Source of the DNA: Candidatus Methylomirabilota bacterium
GTDB lineage: Bacteria; Methylomirabilota; Methylomirabilia; Rokubacteriales; CSP1-6
Assembly (NCBI GenBank): GCA_035649755.1
Contig: DASRIY010000474.1
Location: forward strand, 1-50,530
Direction: 5' to 3'
DNA: 50,530 bases
Positions 1 through 24,441 of this stretch are shown one piece after another. A program made the translations under genes and the position numbers. The notes below the pieces were generated by a model that was given only the letters and a program-made list of their open reading frames with translations, ran no database searches and was not told the DNA's origin. Positions within the stretch are counted from its first letter, which is position 1. Every line of letters begins with the position of its first letter.

Positions 1-461
1 GAGACGAGAATCTGACCGGCACCCGCGGCGGCGCAGATGCGCGCGGCCAGGTTCACGGTGCCGCCGATGTAGTCGCCGTCTTCCTGGCGAATCGGCTCGC
101 CCGTGTTGATGCCGATGCCGATGGCGATGCGGGGACCGGTCTGGTCACGGTTCGCCTGGGCGACGATGCGCTGGATCGCGATGGCGCAGAGGATGGCGCC
201 GCGGGCGGCGCTGAAGGCGACCATGAAGCTGTCGCCCTGGGTCTTGACGACCACCCCGCCGTACGCGTCGATCTGGCTGCGGATGATGATGTCCTGCTCG
301 TGAACGATCCGGGACGCCGCCTCGTCGCCAAACTCCTCCGTGTAGTCGGTGAAGCCCCGGATATCGCTGAAAAAGATGGTGACGGTCCCGCTGAACGGCA
401 CCGGCACCGCTTCGGGTGCGGCCCGGAGACTGCTTCCCTCGCCCTGCGCGTTTTCGTTCAT
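1..461 (-). CDS. Class III adenylate/guanylate cyclase domain protein (3' end runs off the window)
   Basis: Not in ORF track. Manual translation from ATG 461: MNENAQG...TVTIFFSDIRGFTDYTE...VVKTQGDSFMVAF...IGIGINTGE...DYIGGTVNLAARI. Both metal-binding Asp motifs and the NxxxR motif are present; the Lys/Asp specificity residues suggest ATP. Confidence 0.9.
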   Translation of the reverse strand, partial: MNENAQGEGSSLRAAPEAVPVPFSGTVTIFFSDIRGFTDYTEEFGDEAASRIVHEQDIIIRSQIDAYGGVVVKTQGDSFMVAFSAARGAILCAIAIQRIVAQANRDQTGPRIAIGIGINTGEPIRQEDGDYIGGTVNLAARICAAAGAGQILV

Positions 462-542
462 CTGGAGGCGATTCAGGTGGCACTAAAAATAGTAGCCGAT
501 GGGGGGGTAAAACTGAGTGCCTTTCCGGACCGGCGGCGGACG

Positions 543-1808
543 CTATCTTCGAACGACGCGGCGCGCCTTTAGCTCGTAGCGCGGGAGGCTCCGGAGAGGC
601 ACCGCCGTGACCTCGAACCGGATTCCGAGGGTGGCCCGCAGGGCCTCCTGAAGCCGGGAGGCGCCCGCCGCGTCCCCAATCTCGACGAGTACCCGAACCT
701 CGTCGAGCTCCCCCGCACGGAAGACCTCGATCTGGAACTCGTCGATCGTCGGGAAGCGCCTGACTACCCCCTCGATCGCCGCGGGAAAGACGTTCACGCC
801 GCGCACGATGAGCATGTCGTCGAGCCGGCCCAAGATGCCGCCCTCGAGCCGGACGAACGTACGACCGCATGGGCACGGCCTGTCGGCCAGCCTGACGTGA
901 TCGCCGGTCCGGTACCGGATGGCCGGCGAGCCCACCCGCCCGAGATTGGTCAGGACCAGCTCGCCGTCACGCGCGGGGGCAGCCGTCAGCGGGTCGATCA
1001 CCTCGGCGATGAACTCGGACTCGTTGACGTGAAGCCCGCCCCGCTCGGCGCACTCGTAGCCGTAGGCGCCCATCTCGGTCATACCGCCGTGGTCGTACGT
1101 CCTTGCGCCCCAGGCCTCCTCGATACGGGCGCGCACCGCCGGGATCCCTGCCCCCGGCTCGCCCGCGTGCACGGTGATCCGCATCGGCAGCCGGCCGAGG
1201 TCGATGGAGCGCTCGCGGGCGACCTCGGCCAGGTGCAGGGCATAGGACGGCGTGCACACGAGGACCGTCGCGCCGAGGGCCTCCATGGCGGCCAGGCGCG
1301 TCGGCGAGTCCTGGCCCCCGCCGGGAATGGCCAGCGCGCCGAGCGCCCGGGCGCCCTCGAATCCGGCCCAGAACCCGATGAAGAGACCGAACGAGAACGG
1401 GAAAAAGACGCGATCCACGGGCTCCACACCGGCGCCTCTCAGAACGAACCCCCAGCAGCGCGCCCACCACTCCCACGATTCCTGCGTGTCGAGCCATCGG
1501 ATCGGCGCGCCGCTCGTGCCCGATGTCTGGTGCACGCGAACGTAGCGCTCGAGTGGGAACGTGAGATTGGCGCCGAAGGGCGGATTCGCGGCCTGATCGT
1601 CGACCAGCTCCGCCTTTCGCGTCAGGGGCACACGCCGGAAGTCGTCCCAGCTGCGGAGATCGTCGACCGAGGCGATTCCCGCCTCGCGCCACTTGCGCGC
1701 GACGAAGCGGTTCGAGGCGAGAAGCTGGGCCGCCATGGCGCGAAAGCGGCGCCACTGGTGATCGCGCAGAGGATCGGAGCCGAGCGTCTCCAGCGCGCGG
1801 TCGAACAC
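543..1808 (-). CDS. Phenylacetate-CoA ligase (PaaK)-like aryl-CoA ligase
   Basis: HQTSGTSG P-loop, CTPSYALHL, GEPG, YRTGD, GRLDDMLIVRGVNVFP and a C-terminal KARRV. Confidence 0.85.
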   Translation of the reverse strand: MFDRALETLGSDPLRDHQWRRFRAMAAQLLASNRFVARKWREAGIASVDDLRSWDDFRRVPLTRKAELVDDQAANPPFGANLTFPLERYVRVHQTSGTSGAPIRWLDTQESWEWWARCWGFVLRGAGVEPVDRVFFPFSFGLFIGFWAGFEGARALGALAIPGGGQDSPTRLAAMEALGATVLVCTPSYALHLAEVARERSIDLGRLPMRITVHAGEPGAGIPAVRARIEEAWGARTYDHGGMTEMGAYGYECAERGGLHVNESEFIAEVIDPLTAAPARDGELVLTNLGRVGSPAIRYRTGDHVRLADRPCPCGRTFVRLEGGILGRLDDMLIVRGVNVFPAAIEGVVRRFPTIDEFQIEVFRAGELDEVRVLVEIGDAAGASRLQEALRATLGIRFEVTAVPLRSLPRYELKARRVVRR

Positions 1809-1822
1809 CGTCCGCGTGGCCC

Positions 1823-3373
1823 TCAGGCCCTGAGCTTGAACCGCTGGATCTTGCCGGTCGCGGTCTTGGGCAGCTCGGCGACGAAGTCGATCCAGCGGGG
1901 GTACTTGTAGGGAGCGATCTTGTCCTTCACGAAGGCCTTGAGCTCGTCGGCGAGCTTATCGCCGCCGCTCGCCGGCTCCTTGAGGACGACGAAGGCCTGC
2001 GGCTTGACCAGCCGATCGCTGTCCTCACGGCCGACCACCGCCGCCTCCAGCACCGCCGGGTGGCGCACCAGCGTCGCCTCGACCTCCACCGGCGAGACCC
2101 AGATGCCGCCAACCTTCAGCATGTCGTCCGAACGGCCGCAATACCAGAAGTAGCCCTCGGCGTCCTCGTAGTACTTGTCGCCTGTCTGGATCCACGGGCC
2201 GAAGAGCGTCTCCTTGGTCTTGTCGTGCTTGTTCCAGTAGTACGCCATCGTCGAGTCGCCCTTGACGCGCAGGTTGCCGATCTCGCCGCGCGGGACGCGA
2301 TGCCCCTCGTCGTCGACGATCGCGAGCTCGTAGCCGGGCACGGGCATGCCCGACGAGCCGGGCCGCGCGCGCCCCGGGCGATTCGAGATGAAGATGTAGC
2401 CGATCTCGGTGGTGCCGATGCCGTCGATGATCTCCACGCCGAACCGCTCGCGCCAGCGTGTGAAGAGCTCGTCGGGCAAGGCCTCGCCGGCTGACACGCA
2501 GAGCCGGAGCGACGAGGTGTCGAAGCGCTTCTCGGCATCCTTCACCGCCAGCATCCCGGCGTAGAGCGTCGGCACGCCGAAGAACAGCGTCGGCCGGAAC
2601 CGCGCGATGACCTCGAAGACGCCCTCGGGCGTCGGGCGGTGCGGATAGAGCACGGCCTGCGCGCCGACGCTCATCGGAATGAAGCCGGTGGCGCCCAGGC
2701 CGTACGCGAAGAAAAGCTTGGCCGCAGAGAACACGCGGTCGTCCGGGCGGATCCCGAGCACTTGCCTGGCGTAGGTCTCGCAGCACACGACCATGTCGTG
2801 ATGCAGGTGCACCGCGCCCTTGGGAAAGCCCGTCGAGCCGGACGAATACTGCCAGTACGCCGGATCGTCGCGCGAGGTCGGCGCGGCGGCGAGGCTCGTC
2901 GACGCCTTGCCGACGCGGTCCTCGAAGGACATGTAGGGCCCCGGGGCGCCGCCGGCGACCAGCACGTGCTTGAGGTGCCTGGCCTCGGTGAGCGCGGGCC
3001 CCACCTCGGCGAGCAGCGCCGCCGACACGACCGCCACTTTCGCGCGGCTGTCGTTCAGGAAATAGAGATAGTCGGCGGTGCGCATCAGCGTATTGGTGGG
3101 AATCGGCACCGCGCCGATCTTGATGGCGCCCCAGAACGTCCCGATGAACTCCGGCGCGTCGAGGCAGAGCATGAGCACGCGGTTCTCGGGCTCCACGCCG
3201 ATCTCCAGGAGCGCGTTCCCGGTGCGGTTCACCAGCTCCTGGACCTGTCCGTACGTGAGCGTCCGGCCCTCGTACTGGAACGCCGGCGTCGCCCCGCGGC
3301 CCTCGGTGACGTTGCGGTCGACGAACCACGACGCCACGTTGAACTGCGCGGGCAGCGACTCCGACGCGATCAT
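1823..3373 (-). CDS. Benzoate-CoA ligase family protein
   Basis: YSSGSTGFPKG, AAKLFFAYGLG, SAGEALP, GRSDDMLKVGGIWVSP, APYKYPRWI and LPKTATGKIQRFKLR; sits directly downstream of boxB. Confidence 0.9.
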   Translation of the reverse strand: MIASESLPAQFNVASWFVDRNVTEGRGATPAFQYEGRTLTYGQVQELVNRTGNALLEIGVEPENRVLMLCLDAPEFIGTFWGAIKIGAVPIPTNTLMRTADYLYFLNDSRAKVAVVSAALLAEVGPALTEARHLKHVLVAGGAPGPYMSFEDRVGKASTSLAAAPTSRDDPAYWQYSSGSTGFPKGAVHLHHDMVVCCETYARQVLGIRPDDRVFSAAKLFFAYGLGATGFIPMSVGAQAVLYPHRPTPEGVFEVIARFRPTLFFGVPTLYAGMLAVKDAEKRFDTSSLRLCVSAGEALPDELFTRWRERFGVEIIDGIGTTEIGYIFISNRPGRARPGSSGMPVPGYELAIVDDEGHRVPRGEIGNLRVKGDSTMAYYWNKHDKTKETLFGPWIQTGDKYYEDAEGYFWYCGRSDDMLKVGGIWVSPVEVEATLVRHPAVLEAAVVGREDSDRLVKPQAFVVLKEPASGGDKLADELKAFVKDKIAPYKYPRWIDFVAELPKTATGKIQRFKLRA

Positions 3374-3374
3374 G

Positions 3375-4793
3375 TCAGGCCAGGCGGACGTATTCGAAAT
3401 CGACCGGCTGGCTGTTGACGCCGCGCGCGGGCGGCGCGATCCAGCTGGCGAAGCGGCCGCGCTCCGTCACCGGCCGCATCAAGCTCTCGACGTACGCCTG
3501 ATCCGCCTCGGTGGGCAGCCACGCGTGCTTGTTCGAGTCCCATGCGGCTTCGCTGAGCACGAGGCCGTCCGGCGACACCTTGACCTCGGCGAACAGGCCG
3601 ATCGCGCGGCGGAAGCCCCGGTTGGGCAGCCGGAGCTCGAAGTCGATCTCGTGCTTCTTGATGATCTGGTTCCACCGGTCGACCCCGCGCTGGCAATCGG
3701 CGATGTAGTCGTCGCGCAGCCGCTCGTTGAGCGAGGGCAAGGCGGGCGCCTCGCGCGTCGTGATGCGATCGCCGGCGAGCTCGCTCACCGTGTAGGTGGC
3801 ATCCTTGAGCCGGTGGTCGTCCTTCTTCTTCGATTCCTCGAAGCGCCCCTTGAGGCCCATGGTGTAGAAGTTGGCGGCGTTGGTCGAGACCTCGGACCCG
3901 AACAGGTCGAGCGATACCGAGTAGTGGAAGTTGATGTACTTCTGGAGCGTCTCGAGGTCGATCCCGCCCAGCCGCCGGACGTCGTCGGTCTTGCCCTCGC
4001 GCATGAGCTCGCACGTGCGCTGCACGACCCGCCCGATTCCGGTCTCGCCCACGAAGAGATGGTGCGCCTCCTCCGTCAGCATGAAGCGGCAGGTGCGCGA
4101 CAGGGGGTCGAAGCCGCTCTCGGCGAGGCTCGCCAGCTGATACTTGCCGTCGCGATCGGTGAAGTACGTGAACATCAGATACGACAGCCAGTCCGGTGTC
4201 TTCTCGTTGAAGGCGCCGAGGATGCGCGGCTTGTCGCGGTCGCCCGAGCGGCGCTGCAGGAGCGCCTCGGACTCCTCGCGGCCGTCCCGGCCGAAGTAGG
4301 CATCGAGCAGGTAGACCATCGCCCAGAGGTGGCGGCCCTCCTCGACGTTGATCTGGAACAGGTTGCGCAGGTCGTAGAGCGAGGGACAGGTGGCGCCGAG
4401 GTGGCGCTGCTGCTCGACCGAGGCGGGCTCGGTGTCGCCCTGGGTGACGATGAGCCGACGCAGGACGCCGCGGTACTCGCCCGGGACGTCCTGCCAGCAG
4501 GGTGCGCCGAGGTGATCGCCGAACCCGATCGTGCGCCCGGCTTCCGGTTCGGCGAGGAACAGGCCCCAGCGGTACTCCGGCATCCTCACGTAGTCGAACT
4601 GGGCCCACCCCTGCGCGTCGACGCTCACGGCGGTGCGCAGGTAGACGTCCTTCTGCTGGAAGCCGTCGGGCCCCATGCTCATCCACCAGTCGATGAACTT
4701 CGGCTGCCACTCCTCGAGCGCGCGCTGGAGCCGGCGGTTGTCGCCGAGGCTCACGTTGTTCGGGATGCGCTCGCTGTAGTCGATGCCGGCCAT
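3375..4793 (-). CDS. boxB: Benzoyl-CoA 2,3-epoxidase, diiron subunit BoxB
   Basis: Start moved to ATG 4793 (MAGIDYSERIPNNV; 472 aa). QGDTEPASVEQQ, EEGRH and EEAHH diiron motifs, DRDGKYQL; TGATG overlap with boxC. Confidence 0.95.
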   Translation of the reverse strand: MAGIDYSERIPNNVSLGDNRRLQRALEEWQPKFIDWWMSMGPDGFQQKDVYLRTAVSVDAQGWAQFDYVRMPEYRWGLFLAEPEAGRTIGFGDHLGAPCWQDVPGEYRGVLRRLIVTQGDTEPASVEQQRHLGATCPSLYDLRNLFQINVEEGRHLWAMVYLLDAYFGRDGREESEALLQRRSGDRDKPRILGAFNEKTPDWLSYLMFTYFTDRDGKYQLASLAESGFDPLSRTCRFMLTEEAHHLFVGETGIGRVVQRTCELMREGKTDDVRRLGGIDLETLQKYINFHYSVSLDLFGSEVSTNAANFYTMGLKGRFEESKKKDDHRLKDATYTVSELAGDRITTREAPALPSLNERLRDDYIADCQRGVDRWNQIIKKHEIDFELRLPNRGFRRAIGLFAEVKVSPDGLVLSEAAWDSNKHAWLPTEADQAYVESLMRPVTERGRFASWIAPPARGVNSQPVDFEYVRLA

Positions 4794-6466
4794 CACACTC
4801 TCCTCCGGTCGAACTCGCTGCGCCGGCCTGTACCGTACACCTCGAGCGCGCCCTTGGGACCCACCGCGTTCGCCCGCTGGAAGATCCAGTTCTGCCATGC
4901 CGAGAGGCGGCCGAATATCTTGCTCTCGATGGTCTCGGGACCGCCGAACCGGATCGAGGCCTCCATGCCCGTGAGCGCGTCCGGCGAGAAGGCGGCCCGC
5001 TCCTCGAGCGCGATGCGGACCTCGTCCTCCCAGTCGATGTCGTCCGGCGTGAAGGTGACCAGCCCGGCTTCCGCCGCCGCGGCGGCATCGAGATCCTCGC
5101 CGACCCGGGCGCGGAGCTTGTCGACGCGCGCGGGCTCGGCCAGGAAGCGGCTCGCCAAGCGGTTGAGGCCGTTGACCATCGGGTAGGCGCCGAAGTTCAG
5201 CTCGGTGAGCCGGACGGCCGCCGCGGGCCGGGTATCTCCGTCGCGCGTGCCGTCGAGCATGTACGAGCGGTCGGCGGCCAAAGCCAGCTCGAGCAGGGTT
5301 CCGGTGAAGCACGAGCCCGGCTCGATCAGCGCGAAGACCGACCGCGAGGACACCTCGATGCGCTTGAGCGTCCGCTTGAGGAACAGCCGGATCTCGCGCA
5401 CGAGCCAGTCGTCGCGGTGCGCCGCCAGCGTCCGGTCGTATGCCTCGACCAGATCACTCCGGCCCGTCGTCCGGAGCACCCAGACACCGATCGTTTCCTC
5501 GTTGGTGCGCAGGTGCAGGATCAGGTCGTCGAGCTCGCGCGCCATTGCGAGGGGCCAGAACGCGTCGCCGGCGGCGTGAATGCCGCTGGCGTCGGCCGGC
5601 GGCGGCTCGGTCGGCGCGTTCACGGTGATCTCGGCGAGACCGCGCCCCCGATCGATGTCGCACGCGACGTGGCGATAGCGGATACGATCGCCGTCGATCG
5701 ATCGCCCGAGCGGCGTCAGGGCCACACCCCGGGCCGCGGCCGGCCGGTCGGTGCGGGCCGCCAGGCCGCCGGCGCGCCGCTTCACGACCTCGTCGAGCGC
5801 CGAGCGCGGCGCGACCTCGTCGACCAGGCCCCATTCCACCGCGCGCGTGCCCTTGATGCCCTCCTCGACCGTGCAGAAGAAGTCGGCGCGGTCGCGGCGC
5901 ACGCGGCGCTTGTCGACGAGCCGCGTGAGACCGCCGGTCCCGGGCAACACGGCGAGCAGCGGCACCTCCGGGAGCGACACGGCCGTGTTGCCGTCGTCGG
6001 CCATGACGATCCAGTCCGTCGCCAGCGCCAGCTCGTAGCCGCCGCCGGCGCACGGCCCGTTGACGGCGCAGAGGTAAGTCTGGCGCGACTCGGCCGTCGC
6101 CTCCTCGATCGCGTTGCGGGTCTCGTTGGTGAACTTGCAGAAGTTCACCTTCCAGCCGTGGGCCGACTGCGCGAGCATCCGGATGTTGGCGCCCGCGCAG
6201 AACACGCGCTCCTTGCCCGAGGTGATGACGACGGCGCCGATTTCGGGATGCTCGAATCGCAGCCGCTGGATCGCGTCGTACAGCTCGACGTCGACGCCGA
6301 GGTCGTACGAGTTGAGCTTGAGCTCGTAGCCCGGACGGAGCCCGCCGTCTTCTCTCACGTCCATGGTGAGCGTGGCCACCGGGCCGGCGAAGCCGAGCTT
6401 CCAGTGGCGGTACCTGGCGGGCTCCGTCCTGAAGTCGACCTGGATGCGCTCGGCGGTTTCCGCCAC
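4793..6466 (-). CDS. boxC: 2,3-epoxybenzoyl-CoA dihydrolase BoxC
   Basis: Start moved to GTG 6466 (557 aa). LKLNSYDLGVDVEL, KVNFCKFTNETRN, LPEVPLLAVLPGTGGLTR and LSAWQNWIFQR are BoxC-type double-crotonase signatures. Confidence 0.95.
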   Translation of the reverse strand: MAETAERIQVDFRTEPARYRHWKLGFAGPVATLTMDVREDGGLRPGYELKLNSYDLGVDVELYDAIQRLRFEHPEIGAVVITSGKERVFCAGANIRMLAQSAHGWKVNFCKFTNETRNAIEEATAESRQTYLCAVNGPCAGGGYELALATDWIVMADDGNTAVSLPEVPLLAVLPGTGGLTRLVDKRRVRRDRADFFCTVEEGIKGTRAVEWGLVDEVAPRSALDEVVKRRAGGLAARTDRPAAARGVALTPLGRSIDGDRIRYRHVACDIDRGRGLAEITVNAPTEPPPADASGIHAAGDAFWPLAMARELDDLILHLRTNEETIGVWVLRTTGRSDLVEAYDRTLAAHRDDWLVREIRLFLKRTLKRIEVSSRSVFALIEPGSCFTGTLLELALAADRSYMLDGTRDGDTRPAAAVRLTELNFGAYPMVNGLNRLASRFLAEPARVDKLRARVGEDLDAAAAAEAGLVTFTPDDIDWEDEVRIALEERAAFSPDALTGMEASIRFGGPETIESKIFGRLSAWQNWIFQRANAVGPKGALEVYGTGRRSEFDRRRV

Positions 6467-6471
6467 CGTGG

Positions 6472-7020
6472 TTATCCCAGGATGACCCAGAGGGCCTGGG
6501 CCTGCTTCGCGCCGAGATTCTCCCAGCCGTGCGGCACGCCGCCGTCGAGCAGGGCGCTGTCGCCCGCCTCGAGGAGATGTCGGTCGCCGTTGTAGTGGAG
6601 CGCCACCTTGCCCTCGAGCACGTAGAAGAGCTTCATCTGCCCGGGCTTGATGATGACCTTCTCCGTCGTGAACCCGCGCGACTTCGCGCCGAGCGTGGTG
6701 ACCACCGCGCGGATCTTCCCCTGGAAGAGCCCGGCGCCGAGCACGGCCCACCGCTCGGACGATCCGTCGAACGTCACGACCGGGTAGTCGCGCTTGCGCG
6801 AGACGACGATGCTGCCGGCCGGCGTGCCGTCGAAGAGCGCCGCGATCGGCACACCGAACGCGGAGGCGATCTTGCCGAGCGTGTTGAGCGACGGCGACAA
6901 GCGTCCCGACTCGATCTGCGAGACCATGCTCGGAGTCAGGTCCGCCTTCTCCGCGAGCTGCCGCTGCTGCAGCTCGCGTTCGGCGCGCAGATTCTTGATG
7001 CGCTCGCCGAGGGTCGTCAC
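6472..7020 (-). CDS. XRE-family HTH + cupin transcriptional regulator
   Basis: LGERIKNLR...QLAEKADLTPSMVSQIESG HTH, followed by a cupin domain (YVLEG...GDS...PHGWEN). Confidence 0.85.
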   Translation of the reverse strand: MTTLGERIKNLRAERELQQRQLAEKADLTPSMVSQIESGRLSPSLNTLGKIASAFGVPIAALFDGTPAGSIVVSRKRDYPVVTFDGSSERWAVLGAGLFQGKIRAVVTTLGAKSRGFTTEKVIIKPGQMKLFYVLEGKVALHYNGDRHLLEAGDSALLDGGVPHGWENLGAKQAQALWVILG

Positions 7021-8027
7021 GCGATTTCCTCCGACGCGGGCGCATCCTCGAACCCGGCGACGGCGGCGAGTGCCCGCGCGACGTAGACGCGCGCCACGCG
7101 CTTGCGGTACGGATGGCTGAAGTCGGTGTTGTCGAGCGGCTTGGCCGGCCCGGCCGCCAGGTTCGACGCGCGTTCGATCAGCTCGGGCGTGAAGCGCTCG
7201 CCGACGAGAGCCGCGGCCGCCTTCTCGGCCGGCCGCGGTAGCGAGGCCACCGCGCCCAGCACGATCCGCGCGTCACGCACGACCTCGCCGTCCATCCGGA
7301 CCGCCACCGCGACGCCCAGCACCGGGAAGTCGAACGACCCGCGGCGCCGGAGCTTCAGATAGACCGATCGCCAACCCTCAGCAGGCGGCAGCATGATGTC
7401 CGTGACGATCTCCTCCGGTCGCTTGGCGAGATAGTCGATGCCGTCGTCCCGATAGAGCGCTGCCATCGGCACCGTACGCTCGCCGCCGGCGCCGACCAGC
7501 CGCACCCGCGCGCCGAGCGCCCACAGAACCGGGGCGGTGTCCGAGGACGACACGGCCCAGCAGCGTGAGCTCCCGGGCGCCACCAGACAGATGTCGCCGT
7601 CCTTCTTCATGCAGAACCCGATCGCCTTCCGCCATTCGTACGACTGATTGTAATAGTTGCAGCGGGTGTCCACGCACACATTGCCCCCGATAGTACCCAT
7701 ATTCTGGAGCTGAGGCGACGACACCAGCCCGGACGCCGTCGCCAGCGCCGGAAAGTCGCGCGCGATCCCCGGATGCGCGGTGACGGCCGAGAGCGTCGTC
7801 GCGGCGCCGATCGTCCAGCCGTCGGACGAGCCCCGGACCCCCCGCAGCTCGCGGATTCCGCGGATCGCCACCAGGACCTTCGGCTCCATCTGCCGCCGCT
7901 TCATGTTGGGGAAGAGGTCGGTCCCGCCCGCCACGAGCGCCGCGTCACGTCCGTGCTCGGTCAAGAGGCGAGCGGCCGCGTCGACGGTATGCGGCGCGAC
8001 GTACGTGAACTCAGGCAATCGAATCAT
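7017..8027 (-). CDS. hcrB: 4-hydroxybenzoyl-CoA reductase beta-like FAD/[4Fe-4S] subunit
   Basis: AGGTDL and GTIGGN FAD motifs, plus a C-X15-C-X7-C-X8-C insertion (CNYYNQSYEWRKAIGFCMKKDGDICLVAPGSSRC) typical of HcrB. Confidence 0.8.
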   Translation of the reverse strand: MIRLPEFTYVAPHTVDAAARLLTEHGRDAALVAGGTDLFPNMKRRQMEPKVLVAIRGIRELRGVRGSSDGWTIGAATTLSAVTAHPGIARDFPALATASGLVSSPQLQNMGTIGGNVCVDTRCNYYNQSYEWRKAIGFCMKKDGDICLVAPGSSRCWAVSSSDTAPVLWALGARVRLVGAGGERTVPMAALYRDDGIDYLAKRPEEIVTDIMLPPAEGWRSVYLKLRRRGSFDFPVLGVAVAVRMDGEVVRDARIVLGAVASLPRPAEKAAAALVGERFTPELIERASNLAAGPAKPLDNTDFSHPYRKRVARVYVARALAAVAGFEDAPASEEIA

Positions 8028-10465
8028 GAGGTAAATGGCCGCGCGACGACGGCGTCGGCCGGCTGGCCAAACGCCGACTCGACCACGAGCGGCTCCTTGA
8101 AGGTCAAAAGTGGCAGCTTCTGAGGGCCGACGCGGCCAGGCCGGCCCAGCCGCTTTTCCTCCAGCGCCTTGAGAATCTTGTCGGGCGTGATCGGGACCTC
8201 GTCGATCCGGATCCCGAGCGCGTGATGGATCGCGTTCGCGATGGCCGGAATCACCGGGAGCAGCGGCCCCTGCCCCGCTTCCTTGGCGCCGAACGGTCCC
8301 TCCGGATCATCGGTCTCCACGAGGATGGTGTGGATCTCGGGCGTCTCGAGGGTGGTCGGGCTCTTGTAGTCGAGCATCGAGGGGTGCTTGTGCAGATTCT
8401 TCCTGAACACCTGCTCCTCCATCAAGGCCTCGCCGATGCCCATGTAGACCGAGCCTTCCACCTGTCCCTCGACCAGGAGCGGGTTGAGGGCGCGGCCGAC
8501 GTCGTGGGCGATCCACACGTTCTCGAGATCGACCTGCCCGGTTTGCTCGTCGACGCTGAGATCGACGACACACGCCGAGTAGGAGTAGCAGGGGGACGGT
8601 CCGACGCCGCCGCCCTTGAATTTCCCCGCGCGCTTGGGCGGCGCGTACGAGCCCGGGAACGCCAGCACACCGTGCAGGGCCTCGCCGAGCTCGACCGCCC
8701 GCGCGAACGGCACCGCCTTGTCCCAGTCGTCGGACACCCCCACCTTGCGGTCGCGGGCCACGAGCGACGCTGGGCTCACCTCGAGCTTCTTCGCGACCGC
8801 CGTGAAGATGGCAGCGCGGAGGCGCTCGGCCGCCTGGATGGCCGCCATGCCGCACATGAGCGTGACGCGCGACGAGTACGAGCCCAGATCGACGGGGGTC
8901 AGGCTCGTATCAGCGGGATGAACGTGGATGTCCTTCGGATCGATGCCGAGGATTTCGGCCGTCACGTACGCGAGGACGGAATCCGACCCCTGGCCGATGT
9001 CGGTGGCGCCGCACAGCACCGCGACGCCGCCGCTGCGGTCCGCGCGCGTGATCACGCCCGAGTGGGGCATGTCGTTCCAGTAGATCGCGGTGCCGGCGCC
9101 GGTGAGATAGGCCGAGCAGGCGATCCCGACTCCCCGCTTGCGGGGTGATGCCGGCCCCGGCTGCTTCGCCGTGACCCCGAAGCGGGCGCGCTTGTCGCGC
9201 CAGCCCGAGGCCTCGACGACCTTGTCGATGCACTCGCCGAGACCGATCGTGGTGACGGTCAGATGGTTGGCGGTCTTGGTGAACGGCTCAGCGACGATCC
9301 GCCGGCGCAATGCCGCCGGATCGAGCCCGAGCTGCTCGGCCGCCTTATCGATCTGGCACTCGAGCGCGAAGCGGGGCTGGGGCGTGCCGTGACCGCGTTT
9401 GGGGCCGCACGGGGGCTTGTTGGTGAAGATGCGCGCCCCCTCGAACTTGTAAACGGGAATCTTGTAGGTCACCGGATTGATCACGCCCGTGTAGAACGTG
9501 GAGGCGACACCGTACGAGCCGTAGGCGCCGCCGTCCAGCCACGTGCGGAGGTGGCAGCCGGTGATGTCGCCCTGCTTCGTGAATCCCGTTTTGATCCACA
9601 TCAGCACGGGATGGCGGCCGCGGTGAGTGTAGAAGACCTCCTCGCGCGTCAGCGCGATCTTGACGGGCCGGCCGGTGAGCTTCGAGAGCTGGCAGGCCAC
9701 GATCTCGTGGGCGAACGGATCGGTCTTGCCCCCGAAGCCGCCGCCGACCGGCGTCGCGACGACACGCACGTGCGCGGCCGGGATGTCGAGCGTCTTGGCC
9801 AGGAGCCGGTGGACGTAGTGCGGCGTCTGCGTCGAGGACCACAGAGTGACCTTGCCGTCCGATCCCCACTGGGCGACCGCGGCGTGCTGCTCCATCGGCA
9901 GATGATTGTTACCTTCGAAGAAGAAGACGTCCTCGCGAACCAGATCGGCCCGCTCGAAGGCGCTCTCGACGTCGCCGAACTGGAGGGCGACGTTCTTGTG
10001 GACGTTCGGCCCGTCGCCGTAGTCGTGAATGCGGACCTCGGGATGGGTGAGCGAGTCGAAGATGGACATGAGGGCCGGCAAGGGCTCGTAGTCCACGTCG
10101 ATGAGCCGGCAGGCGCGCTCGGCGGTCTCCTCGTCGACGGCCGCCACCGCGGCGATCGGGTCGCCGACCATGCGCACCTTGTCGTTGCACAGGGCTTCCT
10201 CGTCCTGCGAGACCGGCAGGATGCCGAACTTCACGCGCGGCAGGTCGGCGCCGGTGACGACCGCGTAGACTCCGGGCAGGGCAAGGGCCCGCGTCGTGTC
10301 GATGGAGCGGATGCGGGCGTGGGCGTGCGCGCTGCGGAGCAGCTTGCCGTACGCCATGCGCGGCAGGAAGAGATCGTCGGCGTACTTCGTCTCGCCGACC
10401 ACCTTCGCCCACGCGTCGATCTTGGGCAGCGGCTGGCCGATGACCGCGAAGTCGTTCTTGCTCAT
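8024..10465 (-). CDS. hcrA: 4-hydroxybenzoyl-CoA reductase alpha-like molybdopterin subunit (xanthine dehydrogenase family)
   Basis: Start moved to ATG 10465 (MSKNDFAVIGQ; 813 aa). STQTPH, GGGFGGK, RGHG, DIGQGS, GSYSSRVT and GQVEG motifs; the catalytic motif reads GAKEAGQG. Confidence 0.75.
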   Translation of the reverse strand: MSKNDFAVIGQPLPKIDAWAKVVGETKYADDLFLPRMAYGKLLRSAHAHARIRSIDTTRALALPGVYAVVTGADLPRVKFGILPVSQDEEALCNDKVRMVGDPIAAVAAVDEETAERACRLIDVDYEPLPALMSIFDSLTHPEVRIHDYGDGPNVHKNVALQFGDVESAFERADLVREDVFFFEGNNHLPMEQHAAVAQWGSDGKVTLWSSTQTPHYVHRLLAKTLDIPAAHVRVVATPVGGGFGGKTDPFAHEIVACQLSKLTGRPVKIALTREEVFYTHRGRHPVLMWIKTGFTKQGDITGCHLRTWLDGGAYGSYGVASTFYTGVINPVTYKIPVYKFEGARIFTNKPPCGPKRGHGTPQPRFALECQIDKAAEQLGLDPAALRRRIVAEPFTKTANHLTVTTIGLGECIDKVVEASGWRDKRARFGVTAKQPGPASPRKRGVGIACSAYLTGAGTAIYWNDMPHSGVITRADRSGGVAVLCGATDIGQGSDSVLAYVTAEILGIDPKDIHVHPADTSLTPVDLGSYSSRVTLMCGMAAIQAAERLRAAIFTAVAKKLEVSPASLVARDRKVGVSDDWDKAVPFARAVELGEALHGVLAFPGSYAPPKRAGKFKGGGVGPSPCYSYSACVVDLSVDEQTGQVDLENVWIAHDVGRALNPLLVEGQVEGSVYMGIGEALMEEQVFRKNLHKHPSMLDYKSPTTLETPEIHTILVETDDPEGPFGAKEAGQGPLLPVIPAIANAIHHALGIRIDEVPITPDKILKALEEKRLGRPGRVGPQKLPLLTFKEPLVVESAFGQPADAVVARPFTS

Positions 10466-10947
10466 GCGCGGCTCTCCCTGTTTCCCATTCGCAACGCCGC
10501 CAGCTCGACGGCGTCGAGGATCTTCGTGTAGCCGGTGCAACGACACAGGTTGCCGGCGAGCGCCTCTTTCACTTCCTGGCGCGTCGGGCTCGGACGCTCG
10601 GCCAGGAGGGCCGTGGCGGTCAAGAGAATGCCGGGGGTGCAGTATCCGCACTGGGCGGCGCCGAGCTCGGCAAAGGCCTGCTGGAGCGGGTGCAGGCGGC
10701 CCCCCTGCGCCATCCCCTCGACCGTCGTGATGCGGCGCCCCTCGACCTCGACGGGGAGCACGAGGCAGGAGAGCACGGGCTCGCCGTCGACGAGCACGGT
10801 GCAGGTACCGCACTCTCCGAGCTCACAGCCGTGCTTGGTCCCGGTGAGCCCGAGGTCCTCGCGGAGCACCTCCAGGAGGGTCTTGTGGACCGGGGCGAGC
10901 GCCTCGCGGGCCTCGTCGTTGACGGTCAGGGCGATCCGGACCCTCAT
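10462..10947 (-). CDS. hcrC: 2x[2Fe-2S] small subunit (HcrC/CoxS-like)
   Basis: GCELGECGTCTV...SC and QCGYCTPG...LCRCTGY; ATGA overlap with hcrA. Confidence 0.8.
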   Translation of the reverse strand: MRVRIALTVNDEAREALAPVHKTLLEVLREDLGLTGTKHGCELGECGTCTVLVDGEPVLSCLVLPVEVEGRRITTVEGMAQGGRLHPLQQAFAELGAAQCGYCTPGILLTATALLAERPSPTRQEVKEALAGNLCRCTGYTKILDAVELAALRMGNRESRA

Positions 10948-10995
10948 GGGAGCTCCATCACGTCGGGGAGTTTAGCGTGGATGAACGTCGGTTTA

Positions 10996-11025
10996 AAAAT
11001 ACTGAACTGGTCGAAGGCCTGTCAA
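10996..11025 (-). promoter_or_regulatory. Putative sigma-70 promoter of the hcr-box operon
   Basis: Minus strand TTGACA (11025-11020) - 18 nt - TATTTT (11001-10996) in an AT-rich divergent intergenic region. Confidence 0.55.
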
Positions 11026-11071
11026 GTGCGAATCCTTGGGCGAAGAAACCGCGGGCGGCTAAGATACCCCC

Positions 11072-11896
11072 GTGCCGTTCGCCAGGGCCGCCGACAAGGT
11101 CCGGATCTACTACGAGGCGCACGGGAGCGGGACGCCCCTCGTGCTCGCCTACGGCATCGGCGGCAATGCCGAGATGTGGGATGTCAACCGCGACGCCCTG
11201 GCCGCCCGCCACCGGCTGATCCTCTGGGAGCCCCGCGGCCACGCGCGCTCGGACAGTCCCGAAGACCCCGCGAAGTACTCGTTCGAGCGGTGGGTCTTCG
11301 ACCTCAAAGCGGTGCTCGACCGCCTGGGCATCCGGAAGGCGCACGTGGGCGGCCTCTCGCTCGGCGCCGGCATCGCCACTCGGTTCGCGCTCAGGTTCCC
11401 GTCGCGTGTGCGCTCGCTGGTCGTGACGAACTCATCGTCCGCCGCCGGGCTCCCGCTCTCGGTCGAGAACCTCGTGATGCGGGCGCGCTCCATCGAGATC
11501 ACGCTCACCAAGGGCATGGACGCCGTGGCGGAGTACGCGATGGTGGCCAACCCGAACCTCTCCGAGCGGCTCGCGCTCGATCCGGGCGCCCGCGCCGAGT
11601 TCTACGAGGAATACCGGCGCCTCTCCCCGATCGGGTACGCGAACTCGCTCCGCGCCCTCATCGCCATGGACCACATCACCGATCAGCTGCGGCGCCTCAG
11701 GATGCCCGTGCTGCTGATCGGCGCCGACCGCGACCCCTCGCTCGAGCCGATGAAGGTGATGCATCGCCGCGTGCGCGGCTCTCGCCTGGCGGTCCTCTCG
11801 CCGGCGAGTCACTTCGGAAACCGCGATCAGCCCGAGGCGTGGAACCGGACGGTGCTCGAGTTCCTCGCCCGCTGCGATCGCCGGACGCGAGGCTAG
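11072..11896 (+). CDS. Alpha/beta hydrolase (PcaD/lactonase-like)
   Basis: RGHARS, GLSLG nucleophile elbow, GADRDP acid residue and SH catalytic His. Confidence 0.85.
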   Translation: MPFARAADKVRIYYEAHGSGTPLVLAYGIGGNAEMWDVNRDALAARHRLILWEPRGHARSDSPEDPAKYSFERWVFDLKAVLDRLGIRKAHVGGLSLGAGIATRFALRFPSRVRSLVVTNSSSAAGLPLSVENLVMRARSIEITLTKGMDAVAEYAMVANPNLSERLALDPGARAEFYEEYRRLSPIGYANSLRALIAMDHITDQLRRLRMPVLLIGADRDPSLEPMKVMHRRVRGSRLAVLSPASHFGNRDQPEAWNRTVLEFLARCDRRTRG

Positions 11897-11900
11897 GCCC

Positions 11901-13250
11901 ATGGACCATCCGCGCGTCCTGGTCGTCGACGACGACGCCGATGTCGGCGGGCTCCTGCGCGAGGCGCTGAGCCGCTGGGGTTACGACGTCACCCTGGCGA
12001 CGAGCGGCCGCGAAGCGGTCCGGCTGATCAGCCATCAGATCTTCGACGCGGCCCTGGTCGACATCTGGATGCCCGAGATGGACGGCCTGCAGGTGCTCGA
12101 AGAGATCAAGCGGCACGACCCGGCCCTCGAGGTCGTGATGATGACCGGCGACCCGATGGTCGAGACGGCTGTCCAGGCGCTGAAGTCCGGGGCCTACGAC
12201 TACCTCATCAAGCCGCTGAACCTGGACGAGATGCAGGTCCTCATGCAGCAGGTCCTCGAGAAGCGCTTCCTGAGCCGCGAGGTGCACTCGCTGCGAAGCC
12301 GCCTGGCCGACCACCTGGCGGTCAAGGACCTGGTGGGCTCGTCGCTGGGCATGACGAGAGTGAAAGAAGTGATCGCCACCATCGCGGACTCGGACTCGCC
12401 CGTGCTGATCGAGGGCGAGAGCGGGACTGGCAAGGAGCTGGTGGCGGCGGCGATCCATCGCCAATCGCAGCGGTCCAAGGGCCCGTTCGTACCTGTGAAC
12501 TGCAGCGCCATCCCCGCCGACCTCATGGAGTCGGAGTTCTTCGGCCATGTTCGCGGAGCCTTTTCGGGCGCCGTGGCCGACGCCCTCGGTCTCTTTCGCT
12601 CCGCCCACGGCGGCACTCTCTTCCTCGACGAGATCGCCGAGCTGTCACCGGCGCTGCAGGCGAAGCTTTTGCGGGTCCTCCAGGAAAAGGAGATCCGGCC
12701 GGTCGGCTCGACCAAGACCCACGCGGTCAGCGTCCGGATGATTGCTGCGACCAACAAGATCCTCGAGAACGTGGTGCAGGGCGGGAGCTTCCGCCAGGAC
12801 CTCTTCTACCGGCTCAACGTCGTGCGCATCGTGGTGCCGCCCCTCCGCGAGCGGAAGGACGACATTCCGGCGCTCATCACGTACTTCATCCGGAGGTTCA
12901 ACGAGCGGTTCCGGCGCGACGTGAAAGGCATCGCCCCCGATGCGATCGCCGCCCTGACCGCCTACGACTTCCCGGGCAACGTGCGCGAGCTCGAAAACCT
13001 GCTCGAGCGAGCGTACGCCCTCGGCGCGCGCGACGAGATCGAGCGCGCGAGCTTCCCCGAGCTGGCCGCCAGGTCGGATGCGCCGGTCGTGACGGTCGAC
13101 GAGCCGATTCCCACGATCGATCAGGCCGAGCGCGATCTGATCGCGCGCGCCCTCACGCGGTTCAAGAACGATAAGGACCAGGCGGCCCGCGCGCTCGGTC
13201 TCACCGTGCGCACGCTCTATCGCCGCATCAAAAAGTTCGGCCTCGTCTAG
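11901..13250 (+). CDS. Sigma-54-dependent response regulator (NtrC/AtoC family: REC-AAA-HTH)
   Basis: VVDDD/DIWMP receiver, GESGTGKE Walker A, GAFSGA loop, LFLDEI, FRQDLFYRLNV, FPGNVREL and a Fis-type HTH. Confidence 0.93.
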   Translation: MDHPRVLVVDDDADVGGLLREALSRWGYDVTLATSGREAVRLISHQIFDAALVDIWMPEMDGLQVLEEIKRHDPALEVVMMTGDPMVETAVQALKSGAYDYLIKPLNLDEMQVLMQQVLEKRFLSREVHSLRSRLADHLAVKDLVGSSLGMTRVKEVIATIADSDSPVLIEGESGTGKELVAAAIHRQSQRSKGPFVPVNCSAIPADLMESEFFGHVRGAFSGAVADALGLFRSAHGGTLFLDEIAELSPALQAKLLRVLQEKEIRPVGSTKTHAVSVRMIAATNKILENVVQGGSFRQDLFYRLNVVRIVVPPLRERKDDIPALITYFIRRFNERFRRDVKGIAPDAIAALTAYDFPGNVRELENLLERAYALGARDEIERASFPELAARSDAPVVTVDEPIPTIDQAERDLIARALTRFKNDKDQAARALGLTVRTLYRRIKKFGLV

Positions 13251-17277: not shown

Positions 17278-18768
17278 TCAGAGATCGCCGAGCCCGAGCT
17301 CCTCCCACCGGGCGCGCACTCGCGCCTCGTCCTCCGGAGCCGGCCGGACGGTCGGCGGGAACCGCTCACCACCCCACTCCTTGCGGCGCTCGAGCTGCCA
17401 CGAGCGGGTCGCGTCGATCAGGACGCGGTTCCAGAGTCCGGTGCCGAGCTGCGCCACGTCCCGGTCCTCGAGCGGCGTGCTCGGGTCGATCGGCGAGCCG
17501 AAGATTCCCGGGAAGACCACGATGCCATCGCGGCCGGCGTTCACGCGGTGGGCGAACGCCCAGTCCACCTGCTCGTACGACGAGGGGTCGATGTCCTCCT
17601 CGACGACGATGACGTGCTTGTAGCGGAACTGCGCCGCGCTCGCGCCCCACAGGGCGGCGGCGATCTGCTTGGGTTGTCCCTGGTAGGCCTTCTTGATCTG
17701 GACCACGATGTTCACGCCGTTCGTGATCGGCGGGACGAAGACGTCGCGAATGCCCGGAATGCCGGCGTTCGTCAGGATGTGCCAGGCGATGGCCGCGCGC
17801 TGCACCGACGACATCACGCTGTTCTCGCTATACGAGCCGGGCAGCGTGCCCTCCAGGCAGCCGCGGAAGATCGGATCGCGGCGGTGCGTGATGCACGTGA
17901 TCTGCATCGTGGGGCGCGGCGTCGGGATGTCGGAGACGTAGCCCGTGAACTCGCCGAACGGCCCTTCGGTCTCGTAGGTCGCCGGGTCGTCGCTGATGAA
18001 CCCCTCGATCACGATCTCGGCGCTCGCCGGCACCTCGAGATCGACGGTCTCGCAGCGGACCAGCTCGGCGGGCTCGCCCCGATAGGCGCCCATCACGTCC
18101 CACTCGCAGACACCCGGCGGAATCGGCGACCCGGCCAGGAAGGGCATGATCGGATCCCAGCCGATGACGCAGGCGACCGGCATGGGCTCACCGCGGGCCG
18201 CGTACTTCAAGAAGTGCTGGCCCCAGTGCTGGCCGCCCTTGATGAGCAGGAACGGCGTCGTGTTCTTCTTGCCGACCATGCCCCGATAGATGCCCACGTT
18301 CATGACGCGCGTCTCGGGATCGCGGGTCACGATGCCCGAGAACGTGTGGATATAGCGGCCGCCCTCGAGGTAGTGCCACTTCGGGACCGGGAACTCCGTC
18401 TGGTCCACATCCTTGCCGCGCACGACCACGTCCTTGACGGGCCCGGTGGCGACGATCCGCGGCGCGATCGTCTGCCGGTTCAGTTTCATGACGTGCTGCA
18501 CCAGGTCGCGATTGGAGATGTCGCGCGGAAACCCGAGGGCCAGCGCCAGGCGGCCGACGCTGCCGAGCCCGCTCACCAGGAGCTTCGTGCACCGCCCGGT
18601 CTCGTAGCCCTTGATGTTCTCGAACAAAAGCGCGGGGCCTTTCTTCTCGAGCACGCGGCGCGCGATGGCGCCGAGCTCGCGGTCCCAGTCGACCGGGGCC
18701 GTAACCCGTCGCAGCTCGCCTTCCTTGTCCAGGCGCGTGATCCACTCGCGGAGGTCGACGAAGCTCAT
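17278..18768 (-). CDS. UbiD-family (prFMN-dependent) decarboxylase
   Basis: Start ATG 18768 (MSFVDLREWI). GPALLFENIKG, NVGIYR, VPASAEIVIEG and EGPFGEFTGY. Confidence 0.9.
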   Translation of the reverse strand: MSFVDLREWITRLDKEGELRRVTAPVDWDRELGAIARRVLEKKGPALLFENIKGYETGRCTKLLVSGLGSVGRLALALGFPRDISNRDLVQHVMKLNRQTIAPRIVATGPVKDVVVRGKDVDQTEFPVPKWHYLEGGRYIHTFSGIVTRDPETRVMNVGIYRGMVGKKNTTPFLLIKGGQHWGQHFLKYAARGEPMPVACVIGWDPIMPFLAGSPIPPGVCEWDVMGAYRGEPAELVRCETVDLEVPASAEIVIEGFISDDPATYETEGPFGEFTGYVSDIPTPRPTMQITCITHRRDPIFRGCLEGTLPGSYSENSVMSSVQRAAIAWHILTNAGIPGIRDVFVPPITNGVNIVVQIKKAYQGQPKQIAAALWGASAAQFRYKHVIVVEEDIDPSSYEQVDWAFAHRVNAGRDGIVVFPGIFGSPIDPSTPLEDRDVAQLGTGLWNRVLIDATRSWQLERRKEWGGERFPPTVRPAPEDEARVRARWEELGLGDL

Positions 18769-19775
18769 CGAAATAACACCGGCGCGACCTCGTTGAGGAA
18801 GCGCTTGAATTGACCCACCTGGTCCCACGAGCCGAAGCGCAGCGCCATGTGGCCGACGCCGGCGTCGAAGTAGGCGCGGAGCTCCTCCACGCATTGCTTG
18901 GGGGCGCCCGAGATGGTCCACTGCTCCACGAACTGGCGCGAGAAGTTCGACGTGTAGTACTTGTCGAGGAACGCCTTCGTCTCCTCGAGCCCCTTCTGGC
19001 GGTCCTCGGTGATGTTGATGTTGTGATAGAGCGCGCTGCCGAGCTTCGCGGGGTCGCGCCCCTCCTCCCGGGTCATGGCCGCGATGCGGCTCCACTGCTG
19101 CCGGAATTCGTCCGGCGTGAGCTTGTTCGTCATCCAGCCGTCGGCGTAGCGCGCGATGCGCCGAAAGGAGCGTTCCACGACCGCGTCGGACGCGGAGGCG
19201 CCGCCCTTCCACGTGAGGCCGGTAGGATTGGACGCGACCCAGATCGGACACGGCTGCTGCACCGGCCGCGGCTCGAGCGTCACGTCCTCGAACGAGTAGA
19301 ACCGGCCCCGATGCGAAACGTTCTTGCCGCCGAAGAGCTTGCGCAAGATGTCGATGCCCTCTTCCAGGCGTCCCACACGCTCGGCGGAGGGGATGCTCAT
19401 GACGCTGTGTTCGGCGGCCTGCGCTTTGTTGGCGTCGCTCGGCCCGCCGAGACACACCGCGAGCAAGGTCCGGCCGCTGGAGAGCACGTCGAGGCTCGCC
19501 CACTGGTGGGCCAGCATGACCGGATGGCGATGAACGAACGTGGCCATGCAGCCGACGCCGAGACGCAGCTTGGTGGTCACGCCGGCGAGCGCGGAGAGCA
19601 GCGTGATCGACTCCAGGCGCGGCTTGGCCAGCAGGCTGTCGCCGGCCCAGACGGCGTCGAAGAAGCCGGAGCGCTCCGCCTGCGCGGTGAGGTCGACGAG
19701 ATCCGCTACCTTGACGGCGCCGAGCACGACTGCGCGATTGGCCACGATCAGTCCGAACGACGGCTTTGCGGCCAC
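18765..19775 (-). CDS. LLM-class (luciferase-like) flavin/F420-dependent oxidoreductase
   Basis: Start GTG 19775. FDAVWAGDS, LDVLSSGR, PRPVQ.PCPIWVA and ARYADGW. Confidence 0.85.
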   Translation of the reverse strand: MAAKPSFGLIVANRAVVLGAVKVADLVDLTAQAERSGFFDAVWAGDSLLAKPRLESITLLSALAGVTTKLRLGVGCMATFVHRHPVMLAHQWASLDVLSSGRTLLAVCLGGPSDANKAQAAEHSVMSIPSAERVGRLEEGIDILRKLFGGKNVSHRGRFYSFEDVTLEPRPVQQPCPIWVASNPTGLTWKGGASASDAVVERSFRRIARYADGWMTNKLTPDEFRQQWSRIAAMTREEGRDPAKLGSALYHNINITEDRQKGLEETKAFLDKYYTSNFSRQFVEQWTISGAPKQCVEELRAYFDAGVGHMALRFGSWDQVGQFKRFLNEVAPVLFR

Positions 19776-19777
19776 GG

Positions 19778-20545
19778 CTACCTCCCTGTGTAGTTCGGCG
19801 GACGCTTCTCGAGGAAGGCGGTCACGCCTTCTGCGTAGTCGTGCGTCGACCGGAGCCATGCGTACGCCTTGCGCTCGAGCTCTAGCGCCGTCTCGAGCGG
19901 CGCCTCGGCGCCCCGGTTGAGTACCATTTTCAGGGTGCGGAGCGCCAGCGGCGCTCGCTCGGCCAGCTCGCCGGCCAGTCCATTGACGGCCTCGTCGAGC
20001 CCCTCGTTCGGCACGGCCCGGGTGATCAGCCCCCAGGCCTCCGCGCGCTCGGCCGAGATGCGCTGGCCGGTCATCATGAAGAGCTTGCCGCGCGTCATGC
20101 CCATGAGCCTGAGCGCGCGCTGGGTGCCGCCGCTGCCGGGGATCATGCCCAGCCGCACCTCCGGAAATGCGAACTCGGACCGGAGCGTGGCCACGCGGAA
20201 GTCGCACGCGACGGCCAGCTCGAGACCGGCCCCCATCGTATACCCGTCGATCGCGGCGATGACCGGCTTCCGGCACCGCTCGGCGGCGGTGAGCGTGTCG
20301 CCCCACAGCTCGAGATCGGCGGGCGCCAGCGTGAGGAACTCGGAGACGTCACCGCCGGCGCTGAAGGCCTTGCCGCCCGCGCCGCGGATGATCACGACGC
20401 GCAGGGACTCGTCCCGCTCGAGCGCGGCGAAGATCGCCGGGAACTCGTTTCGCATGGCGACCGTCATCGTGTTCATCTTCGCCTGGCGGTCGATCCAGAT
20501 GGTCGCGACAGCGCCGGCGCGCTCGACGCGCAGGAACTCGCTCAT
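19778..20545 (-). CDS. Crotonase-family protein resembling 2-oxoglutaroyl-CoA hydrolase HmfE
   Basis: Start ATG 20545. FSAGGD, KPVIAAIDG, GAGLEL, FPEVRLGMIPGSGG and YAWLRSTHDY. The HmfE resemblance is recalled, not searched. Confidence 0.8.
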   Translation of the reverse strand: MSEFLRVERAGAVATIWIDRQAKMNTMTVAMRNEFPAIFAALERDESLRVVIIRGAGGKAFSAGGDVSEFLTLAPADLELWGDTLTAAERCRKPVIAAIDGYTMGAGLELAVACDFRVATLRSEFAFPEVRLGMIPGSGGTQRALRLMGMTRGKLFMMTGQRISAERAEAWGLITRAVPNEGLDEAVNGLAGELAERAPLALRTLKMVLNRGAEAPLETALELERKAYAWLRSTHDYAEGVTAFLEKRPPNYTGR

Positions 20546-24430: not shown

Positions 24431-24441
24431 CCGGCGGCGGG

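Follow-up and report, generated by a model that had tools for sequence, protein, structure and literature searches.

The Box pathway (BoxABC(D)) is known from Aromatoleum (Azoarcus) evansii and from Burkholderiales, as exemplified by the cluster of Mycetohabitans rhizoxinica pBRH01, which comprises a ligase, a regulator, boxC, boxB, and boxA. It is taught as a BoxA-dependent pathway, with BoxB as an O2-dependent enzyme. 4-Hydroxybenzoyl-coenzyme A (CoA) reductase (4-HBCR), for example, HcrCAB of Thauera aromatica (structures 1RM6 and 1SB3; models TIGR03193-03195), has its known place in the anaerobic degradation of aromatics. The stretch of DNA analysed here (50,530 nucleotides (nt), referred to as the window) is contig DASRIY010000474.1 (C474) of a metagenome-assembled genome (MAG) of a Candidatus Methylomirabilota bacterium, order Rokubacteriales (4.55 Mb, 492 contigs, 86% complete, 69% G+C), and it carries the genes of a three-subunit, 4-HBCR-type molybdenum (Mo) enzyme in one operon with boxC and boxB. 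The hcrCAB-boxCB feature proved genuine and is strongly conserved; it may encode a hybrid route, in which a substituted benzoyl-CoA is first reduced to benzoyl-CoA and then epoxidised, with ferredoxin-type carriers feeding both steps, a reading whose probability we put at about 0.5.

The locus resembles the Box pathway in that BoxB and BoxC both score over their equivalog cut-offs, BoxB being 65% identical to the Mycetohabitans protein, and in that boxC precedes boxB, a benzoate-CoA ligase (Bcl) gene lies in the cluster, and an alpha/beta hydrolase gene is found nearby, as in Mycetohabitans. It differs in that boxB is not followed by boxA, no gene for a BoxD-type aldehyde dehydrogenase (ALDH) was found, and the regulator is an XRE-cupin protein, not one of the BoxR type. 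In addition, the operon opens with the Mo enzyme and closes with a second, PaaK-like ligase. The Mo enzyme, in turn, shares with Thauera HcrCAB the gamma-alpha-beta gene order, the [4Fe-4S] Cys loop of the beta subunit, and the RGHG and QxPHY signatures, but all three of its subunits fall under the equivalog cut-offs, and Gln stands in the place of Glu726. Unlike HcrCAB, it is encoded with O2-dependent enzymes, in genomes that hold no recognisable benzoyl-CoA reductase. PaaABC(D)E is a third point of comparison, since it also combines a diiron CoA-ester epoxidase with subsequent crotonase-type ring processing, and BoxB has been described as a structural homologue of PaaA (PMC4498308). Its substrate and subunit make-up are different, however, and PaaE is an FNR-type reductase, a domain that was not found in the MAG.

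The eight genes of the operon form one compact block on the minus strand (positions 543-10947, Table 1). All were found with the tight packing described in an earlier reading of the sequence alone (hereafter, the sequence-only reading), which had reported overlaps or gaps under 15 nt: the junctions are start/stop overlaps of the ATGA or GTGA type, otherwise gaps of 1, 5, or 14 nt. The promoter-like site upstream is the single one in positions 1-11300 (one found versus 0.6 expected from shuffles). The EEGRH and EEAHH motifs of BoxB are invariant in 25 sequences. The gene previously labelled XRE does encode such a domain, but as an XRE-cupin fusion, and is not of the BoxR type. Metatranscriptome contigs (four runs from three studies) span 28 to 30 of the 30 operon bins and include near-identical pieces in hcrA, hcrB, boxB, and boxC, as well as two pieces bridging the XRE/boxC and boxC/boxB junctions, which is a weak hint that cannot prove transcription.

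Genome contigs were searched with the Hcr-like alpha subunit, and the best 80 loci are all Rokubacteria-like, with a few binned under other names; close relatives of BoxB and HcrA carry the depositor names Candidatus Rokubacteria/Rokuibacteriota or Methylomirabilota. Among the 58 of these loci that are testable, 54 have canonical boxC-boxB after hcrCAB, two have a short BoxB-like gene there instead, and two show nothing box-like although 6.5 kb or more of downstream sequence is present. The other 22 loci are cut off too soon to judge, nine of them inside boxC. All 54 box-linked loci contain hcrC, hcrB, the XRE-cupin gene, and boxC, while the Bcl-type ligase is found in 45, the PaaK-like ligase in 36, and a BoxA match in none. 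The conservation of synteny, proposed in the sequence-only reading as a check, is thus borne out. The arrangement is kept across two families at 62-92% protein identity, with the order hcrCAB, nitroreductase-like gene, boxC, boxB, XRE, PhzF-like gene, and PaaK-like ligase in family f4. Four seeming exceptions were explained, three by contig ends (G009, G018, and G017) and one by a frameshifted long-read assembly that holds the whole operon (G012). The plasmid collection held no close HcrA relative (best match 37.6% identical), and metagenome contigs searched with P0124, a Gln-bearing representative from another lineage, gave no match.

These results bear on the view that the adjacency is functionally meaningless and simply places two unrelated gene sets side by side. 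The E-type (Glu) sister clade P0123, with five metagenome loci, would agree with it, having no box genes within 10 kb at its single long locus (L133). Start/stop overlaps throughout the block, only one promoter-like site, and the same order in two families at the protein identities given above make such an accident very improbable.

The sequence-only reading had also noted that boxA, boxD, and boxR are missing from the window, and had called for a search of the whole genome. The boxA model, which gives 682 bits on the annotated boxC-boxB-boxA cluster of Mycetohabitans rhizoxinica as a positive control, had no match over cut-off in the MAG, nor did tblastn of the MAG with the annotated Mycetohabitans BoxA (no match at E<=1e-3). 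BoxA was likewise found in none of 41 relatives, sampled down to order level, and in none of 136 genomes of the phylum chosen for a completeness of 90% or more, of which 83 hold BoxB over cut-off (81 of 134 without the unpublished G148 and G149). The BoxB-bearing genomes comprise family f1 (68 of 83), family f4 (14 of 14), and the MAG itself. With NF008868, the BoxD/PaaN-type ALDH model, the best score in the MAG was 130 bits versus a cut-off of 444, and none of the 41 relatives matched at E<=1e-60. For the BoxR/BzdR-type regulator (NF006015), nothing in the MAG exceeded the cut-off. PF00175, the FNR-type domain carried by both BoxA- and PaaE-type reductases, was found neither in the MAG nor in four of five relatives of 98-100% completeness, versus 11 of 14 control genomes in which it is present. 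The search for benzoyl-CoA reductase genes, suggested at the same time as that for boxA, yielded no class-I B subunit over cut-off in the 41 relatives, and Box is therefore the sole recognisable fate for benzoyl-CoA. The MAG does hold four genes of the aldehyde:ferredoxin-oxidoreductase (AFOR) family (contigs C26, C486, C189, and C366; loci L141-L144), which score 170-210 bits versus the curated AOR cut-off of 868. Ferredoxin-dependent redox chemistry therefore exists there, and these enzymes could stand in for BoxD, oxidising aldehydes with ferredoxin as the acceptor.

Other genes encoded beside boxB were considered as its redox partners. The nitroreductase-like gene was ruled out as a general BoxB reductase, since the MAG encodes nothing closely related to it (25.8% identity) and it is missing from the f1 operons, and the RidA and PhzF-like inserts were rejected, as they are not redox proteins. 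As separate observations, a nitroreductase-family flavoprotein gene lies between hcrB and boxC in f4 (L113:13383-14231), and a gene of this family directly follows BoxB-like genes in two other genomes (L128:3997-4764 and L130:3167-3751); in all these places it is a possible local electron-transfer helper. In the actinomycete Nonomuraea gerenzanensis (L115), a boxB of 64% identity has boxC about 1 kb downstream, and no BoxA match was found within 10 kb on either side.

With BoxA and the FNR-type domain missing, the Hcr-like complex itself might act as the electron donor of BoxB, with its own substrate reaction kept or lost. Electrons would come in from NAD(P)H at the flavin adenine dinucleotide (FAD) or, alternatively, at the Mo site, and leave by the surface [4Fe-4S] loop of HcrB towards the diiron centre of BoxB. 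The conserved operon encodes no redox protein other than Hcr, and the FAD and [4Fe-4S] cofactors of HcrB resemble those of BoxA, which is described as holding FAD and two [4Fe-4S] clusters and as contacting BoxB only transiently (PMC4498308). Prediction of a BoxB-HcrB complex with FAD and a 4Fe-4S cluster gave 0.00 in both runs, a score that counts neither way on binding. On balance, we regard a donor role of this kind as unlikely, in view of the gene distribution and the otherwise intact Mo scaffold described below.

Compared with solved structures, the alpha subunit matches that of T. aromatica 4-HBCR by far the best (1RM6_A, 613 bits; next best 279). The best match of the beta subunit is 1RM6_B (195 bits), with which it aligns straight across the 4-HBCR-specific insertion with all five Cys kept, and the Cys of this [4Fe-4S] insertion are invariant in 22 orthologues. 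The Pfam domains of the trimer (MoCoBD_1/2, Ald_Xan_dh_C, Fer2, Fer2_2, FAD_binding_5, and CO_deh_flav_C) correspond to the make-up of the xanthine oxidase/Mo-hydroxylase superfamily. A search of 1.84 billion representatives placed the alpha subunit in a clade with a true HcrA (P0138, 1301.7 bits) and several sub-threshold lineages, and the RGHG and QxPHY signatures of the active-site region are common to it and the true-HcrA clade. Variation of the substrate has a precedent in the 4-HBCR family, as 4-HBCR-like enzymes have been proposed to deaminate 4-aminobenzoyl-CoA (PMC7500099).

More distant homologues were recorded as well. Second-tier HcrA-like paralogues (about 620-650 bits with TIGR03194) were set aside, their contexts (CoA-mutase/thiolase) being unrelated: at L120:5472-9360, L121:5867-9747, and L122:5802-9664, the paralogue directly follows methylmalonyl-CoA-mutase-like genes, with thiolase-like and CoA-transferase-like flanks and no adjoining beta or gamma genes. 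Several Hcr-superclade representatives of 930-950 amino acids (aa) (P0122, P0127, P0129, and P0133; depositor names Ignavibacteriales and Acidobacteria) match the alpha subunit from about residue 175 and are apparent gamma-alpha fusions. The MAG itself gives roughly 35 or more tblastn matches to large subunits of the xanthine oxidase family on separate contigs, an unusually high number of Mo-hydroxylase paralogues.

The operon consists of two modules, one with Hcr and the PaaK-like ligase, the other with the diiron enzyme, the crotonase, and the Bcl ligase, which are mostly fused in Rokubacteriales but separable. At L096 and L102, hcrCAB, with or without XRE, stands with the PaaK-like ligase and without boxCB, and in the genome of L102, a crotonase gene, a BoxB-like gene, RidA, and a Bcl ligase are found together on a different contig. 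The Hcr-like clade is present in all five of the genomes checked that have no canonical BoxB, three of which hold a short BoxB-like protein of about 373 aa that is 36-37% identical to BoxB. Such a short diiron protein adjoins hcrCAB at L083, L100, and L130, which speaks for a donor role of Hcr. The same interpretation is weakened by the occurrence of the Hcr clade without canonical BoxB, and at L096 and L102 without any diiron gene, and by BoxB-like genes with no hcr nearby (L126, L127, L129, and L131). Since the modules are separable, the pattern is that expected of a peripheral step feeding a central pathway.

The short BoxB-like proteins also form a 'mini-Box' arrangement, in which a 262-aa crotonase gene and the roughly 373-aa BoxB-like gene take the place of boxC-boxB (L083:8850-10761; also L100/L125, L130, and L131). 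The pair stands after hcrCAB-XRE and is followed by RidA and a Bcl ligase, and in one genome it is also present on another contig that has no hcr.

In the hybrid route that we favour, the benzoate-CoA-ligase-family enzyme would activate benzoate to its CoA thioester, and the PaaK-like ligase a benzoate with a ring substituent, the most plausible being 4-hydroxybenzoate or something closely similar. The Hcr-like Mo/FAD/Fe-S enzyme would then strip the ring substituent reductively to give benzoyl-CoA, BoxB would epoxidise the latter with O2, and BoxC would open the ring hydrolytically. Because neither BoxA nor, with few exceptions, an FNR-type reductase could be found in the order, and the MAG has AFOR-family genes, a soluble ferredoxin-type carrier encoded elsewhere probably supplies both Hcr, through its [4Fe-4S] loop, and the diiron site of BoxB. 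The sequence-only reading had offered two choices, this route or the replacement of BoxA by Hcr, and the outcome supports it in part: module separation and the HcrA signatures lean towards the hybrid route, and the absence of BoxA and of the FNR-type domain leans towards the donor role.

Several observations weigh against the hybrid route as just set out. The alpha, beta, and gamma subunits all miss their equivalog cut-offs (scores in Table 1). At the position of the family catalytic Glu next to the Mo cofactor, the alpha subunit has Gln (motif GAKEAGQG), where the Thauera motif is GAKEASEG (Glu726, chain numbering), other solved members read 'G-E', and every other solved family member has Glu. 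Gln is found in 78 of the 80 loci and Glu in none (two are unreadable). Glu is kept in the true HcrA P0138 and in 121 of 133 full-length representatives, among which Gln occurs only in four (the Hcr-like alpha subunit, P0121, P0124, and P0157). This glutamate has been called essential in enzymes of the xanthine dehydrogenase family, and it is described as kept even in a reverse-acting dehydroxylase (PMC11760930). With Gln in its place, classical 4-HBCR chemistry is therefore not assured. Further, the conserved genes of the operon include neither a ferredoxin nor any other reductase, and the substrate given above for the PaaK-like ligase is only putative. Finally, an enzyme that is solely peripheral explains neither the near-universal hcrCAB-boxCB linkage in the order nor the joint absence of BoxA and BoxD. 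As for the hcr labels of the sequence-only reading, the 4-HBCR models are indeed the best match, but 'Hcr' is an overstatement as a name for the trimer, because of the sub-cut-off scores and the Gln at the catalytic position; it is a protein of the 4-HBCR type whose catalytic centre is specifically altered, and no equivalog.

The sequence of the alpha subunit cuts both ways for a donor role. Of 66 family-invariant columns, the Mo-site column alone deviates in all four Gln-bearing proteins, and a change specific to the Hcr-like clade would fit a Mo site remodelled for another task. The other 65 columns are kept by the Gln clade, scattered single deviations aside, and an otherwise fully conserved Mo scaffold is difficult to account for if the complex, at about 1300 residues, did nothing but carry electrons. 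We rate it as unlikely that in Rokubacteria, and perhaps in further lineages without BoxA, the complex is the physiological BoxB donor, replacing BoxA and perhaps BoxD.

The combined lack of BoxA and BoxD-type ALDH across the order, together with the tight linkage to the diiron epoxidase genes, also speaks for a third possibility, in which the Hcr-like enzyme works on an intermediate of the Box pathway and not on a feed substrate. It might dehydroxylate hydroxybenzoyl-CoA dead-ends, arising from spontaneous rearrangement of the epoxide, back to benzoyl-CoA. Alternatively, it might take over from BoxD the oxidation of 3,4-dehydroadipyl-CoA semialdehyde and pass the two electrons to BoxB, in a redox loop without NADPH. 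HcrB is matched across its insertion, in a single aligned stretch each, by the FAD subunits of aldehyde oxidoreductases of the xanthine oxidase family (PaoB 5G5G_B and 5Y6Q_B), which presumably carry a [4Fe-4S] cluster. In the canonical pathway, BoxD is described as NADP+-specific and BoxA as NADPH-specific (PMC4498308), and a coupled replacement would therefore be chemically neat. Nevertheless, Gln in the place of the general-base Glu speaks against an oxidation of the aldehyde or hydroxylase type, the active-site signatures are those of the reductase clade and not of aldehyde oxidases, hcrCAB and its ligase occur without any box genes, and the four AFOR-family genes and generic ALDHs of the MAG could replace BoxD. 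The two versions together are rated a long shot.

Literature searches returned no paper linking Hcr-type enzymes with BoxB. For SAR324, a ligase-BoxB-BoxC cluster without BoxD has been reported and 4-HBCR genes are listed, with no connection drawn between them in the portion of that report available (PMC4782131), and a cluster without BoxA is treated as incomplete in a 2024 survey (PMC10803450). Marker-based annotation would label the pathway incomplete in the present genomes. In a widespread soil order that has BoxB and BoxC, neither BoxA nor a BoxD-type dehydrogenase was found, FNR-type reductases are almost entirely missing, and the operon offers as its sole redox partner a relative of an enzyme of anaerobic aromatic degradation. 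Where BoxB obtains its electrons in BoxA-less organisms is a question answerable with a few recombinant proteins, and the natural Glu-to-Gln variant of the catalytic residue of a Mo-hydroxylase is of mechanistic interest. If the hybrid route holds, it would constitute an unrecognised low-oxygen use of lignin-derived phenolic acids by abundant uncultured soil bacteria. If the complex is instead the donor, a diiron oxygenase would have acquired, as its reductase component, a large molybdoenzyme of the 'anaerobic' type.

Table 1. Positions of the operon genes, the promoter-like site, and the divergent neighbours in the window.
Feature	Position	Strand	Remarks
Sigma-70-like promoter (TTGACA, 18 nt spacer, TATTTT)	10996..11025	-	Consensus match only; ~50 nt upstream of the hcrC-like start
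hcrC-like gamma subunit, 161 aa, two [2Fe-2S] domains	10462..10947	-	TIGR03193, 188.8 bits vs cut-off 257.8; Pfam Fer2, Fer2_2
hcrA-like molybdopterin subunit, 813 aa	8024..10465	-	TIGR03194, 839.2 bits vs 994.55; ATGA start overlap
hcrB-like FAD subunit, 336 aa, Cys-rich [4Fe-4S] insertion	7017..8027	-	TIGR03195, 285.8 bits vs 404.55
XRE helix-turn-helix + cupin regulator, 182 aa, within the operon	6472..7020	-	PuuR-like, 70.7 bits
boxC	4793..6466	-	TIGR03222, 917 bits, over cut-off 712.3; start codon examined
boxB, benzoyl-CoA 2,3-epoxidase diiron subunit, 472 aa	3375..4793	-	TIGR03225, 851 bits, over 499.1
Benzoate-CoA ligase family protein, 516 aa	1823..3373	-	TIGR02262, 696.2 bits, over 375.25
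PaaK-like aryl-CoA ligase, 421 aa	543..1808	-	Best PaaK models 234.9 and 213.7 bits vs 700 and 646
Divergent PcaD-like alpha/beta hydrolase	11072-11896	+	Present at 29/54 box-linked loci
Divergent sigma-54 response regulator	11901-13250	+	

Upstream of the operon, the divergent hydrolase and response regulator (11072..13250) may be functionally tied to it. A second group of aromatic-acid/CoA genes is located further along the window (17278-24835), and encodes a UbiD-family decarboxylase, a luciferase-like monooxygenase, an enoyl-CoA hydratase, an AMP-binding ligase, a Zn-dependent alcohol dehydrogenase, and a second PaaK-like ligase.

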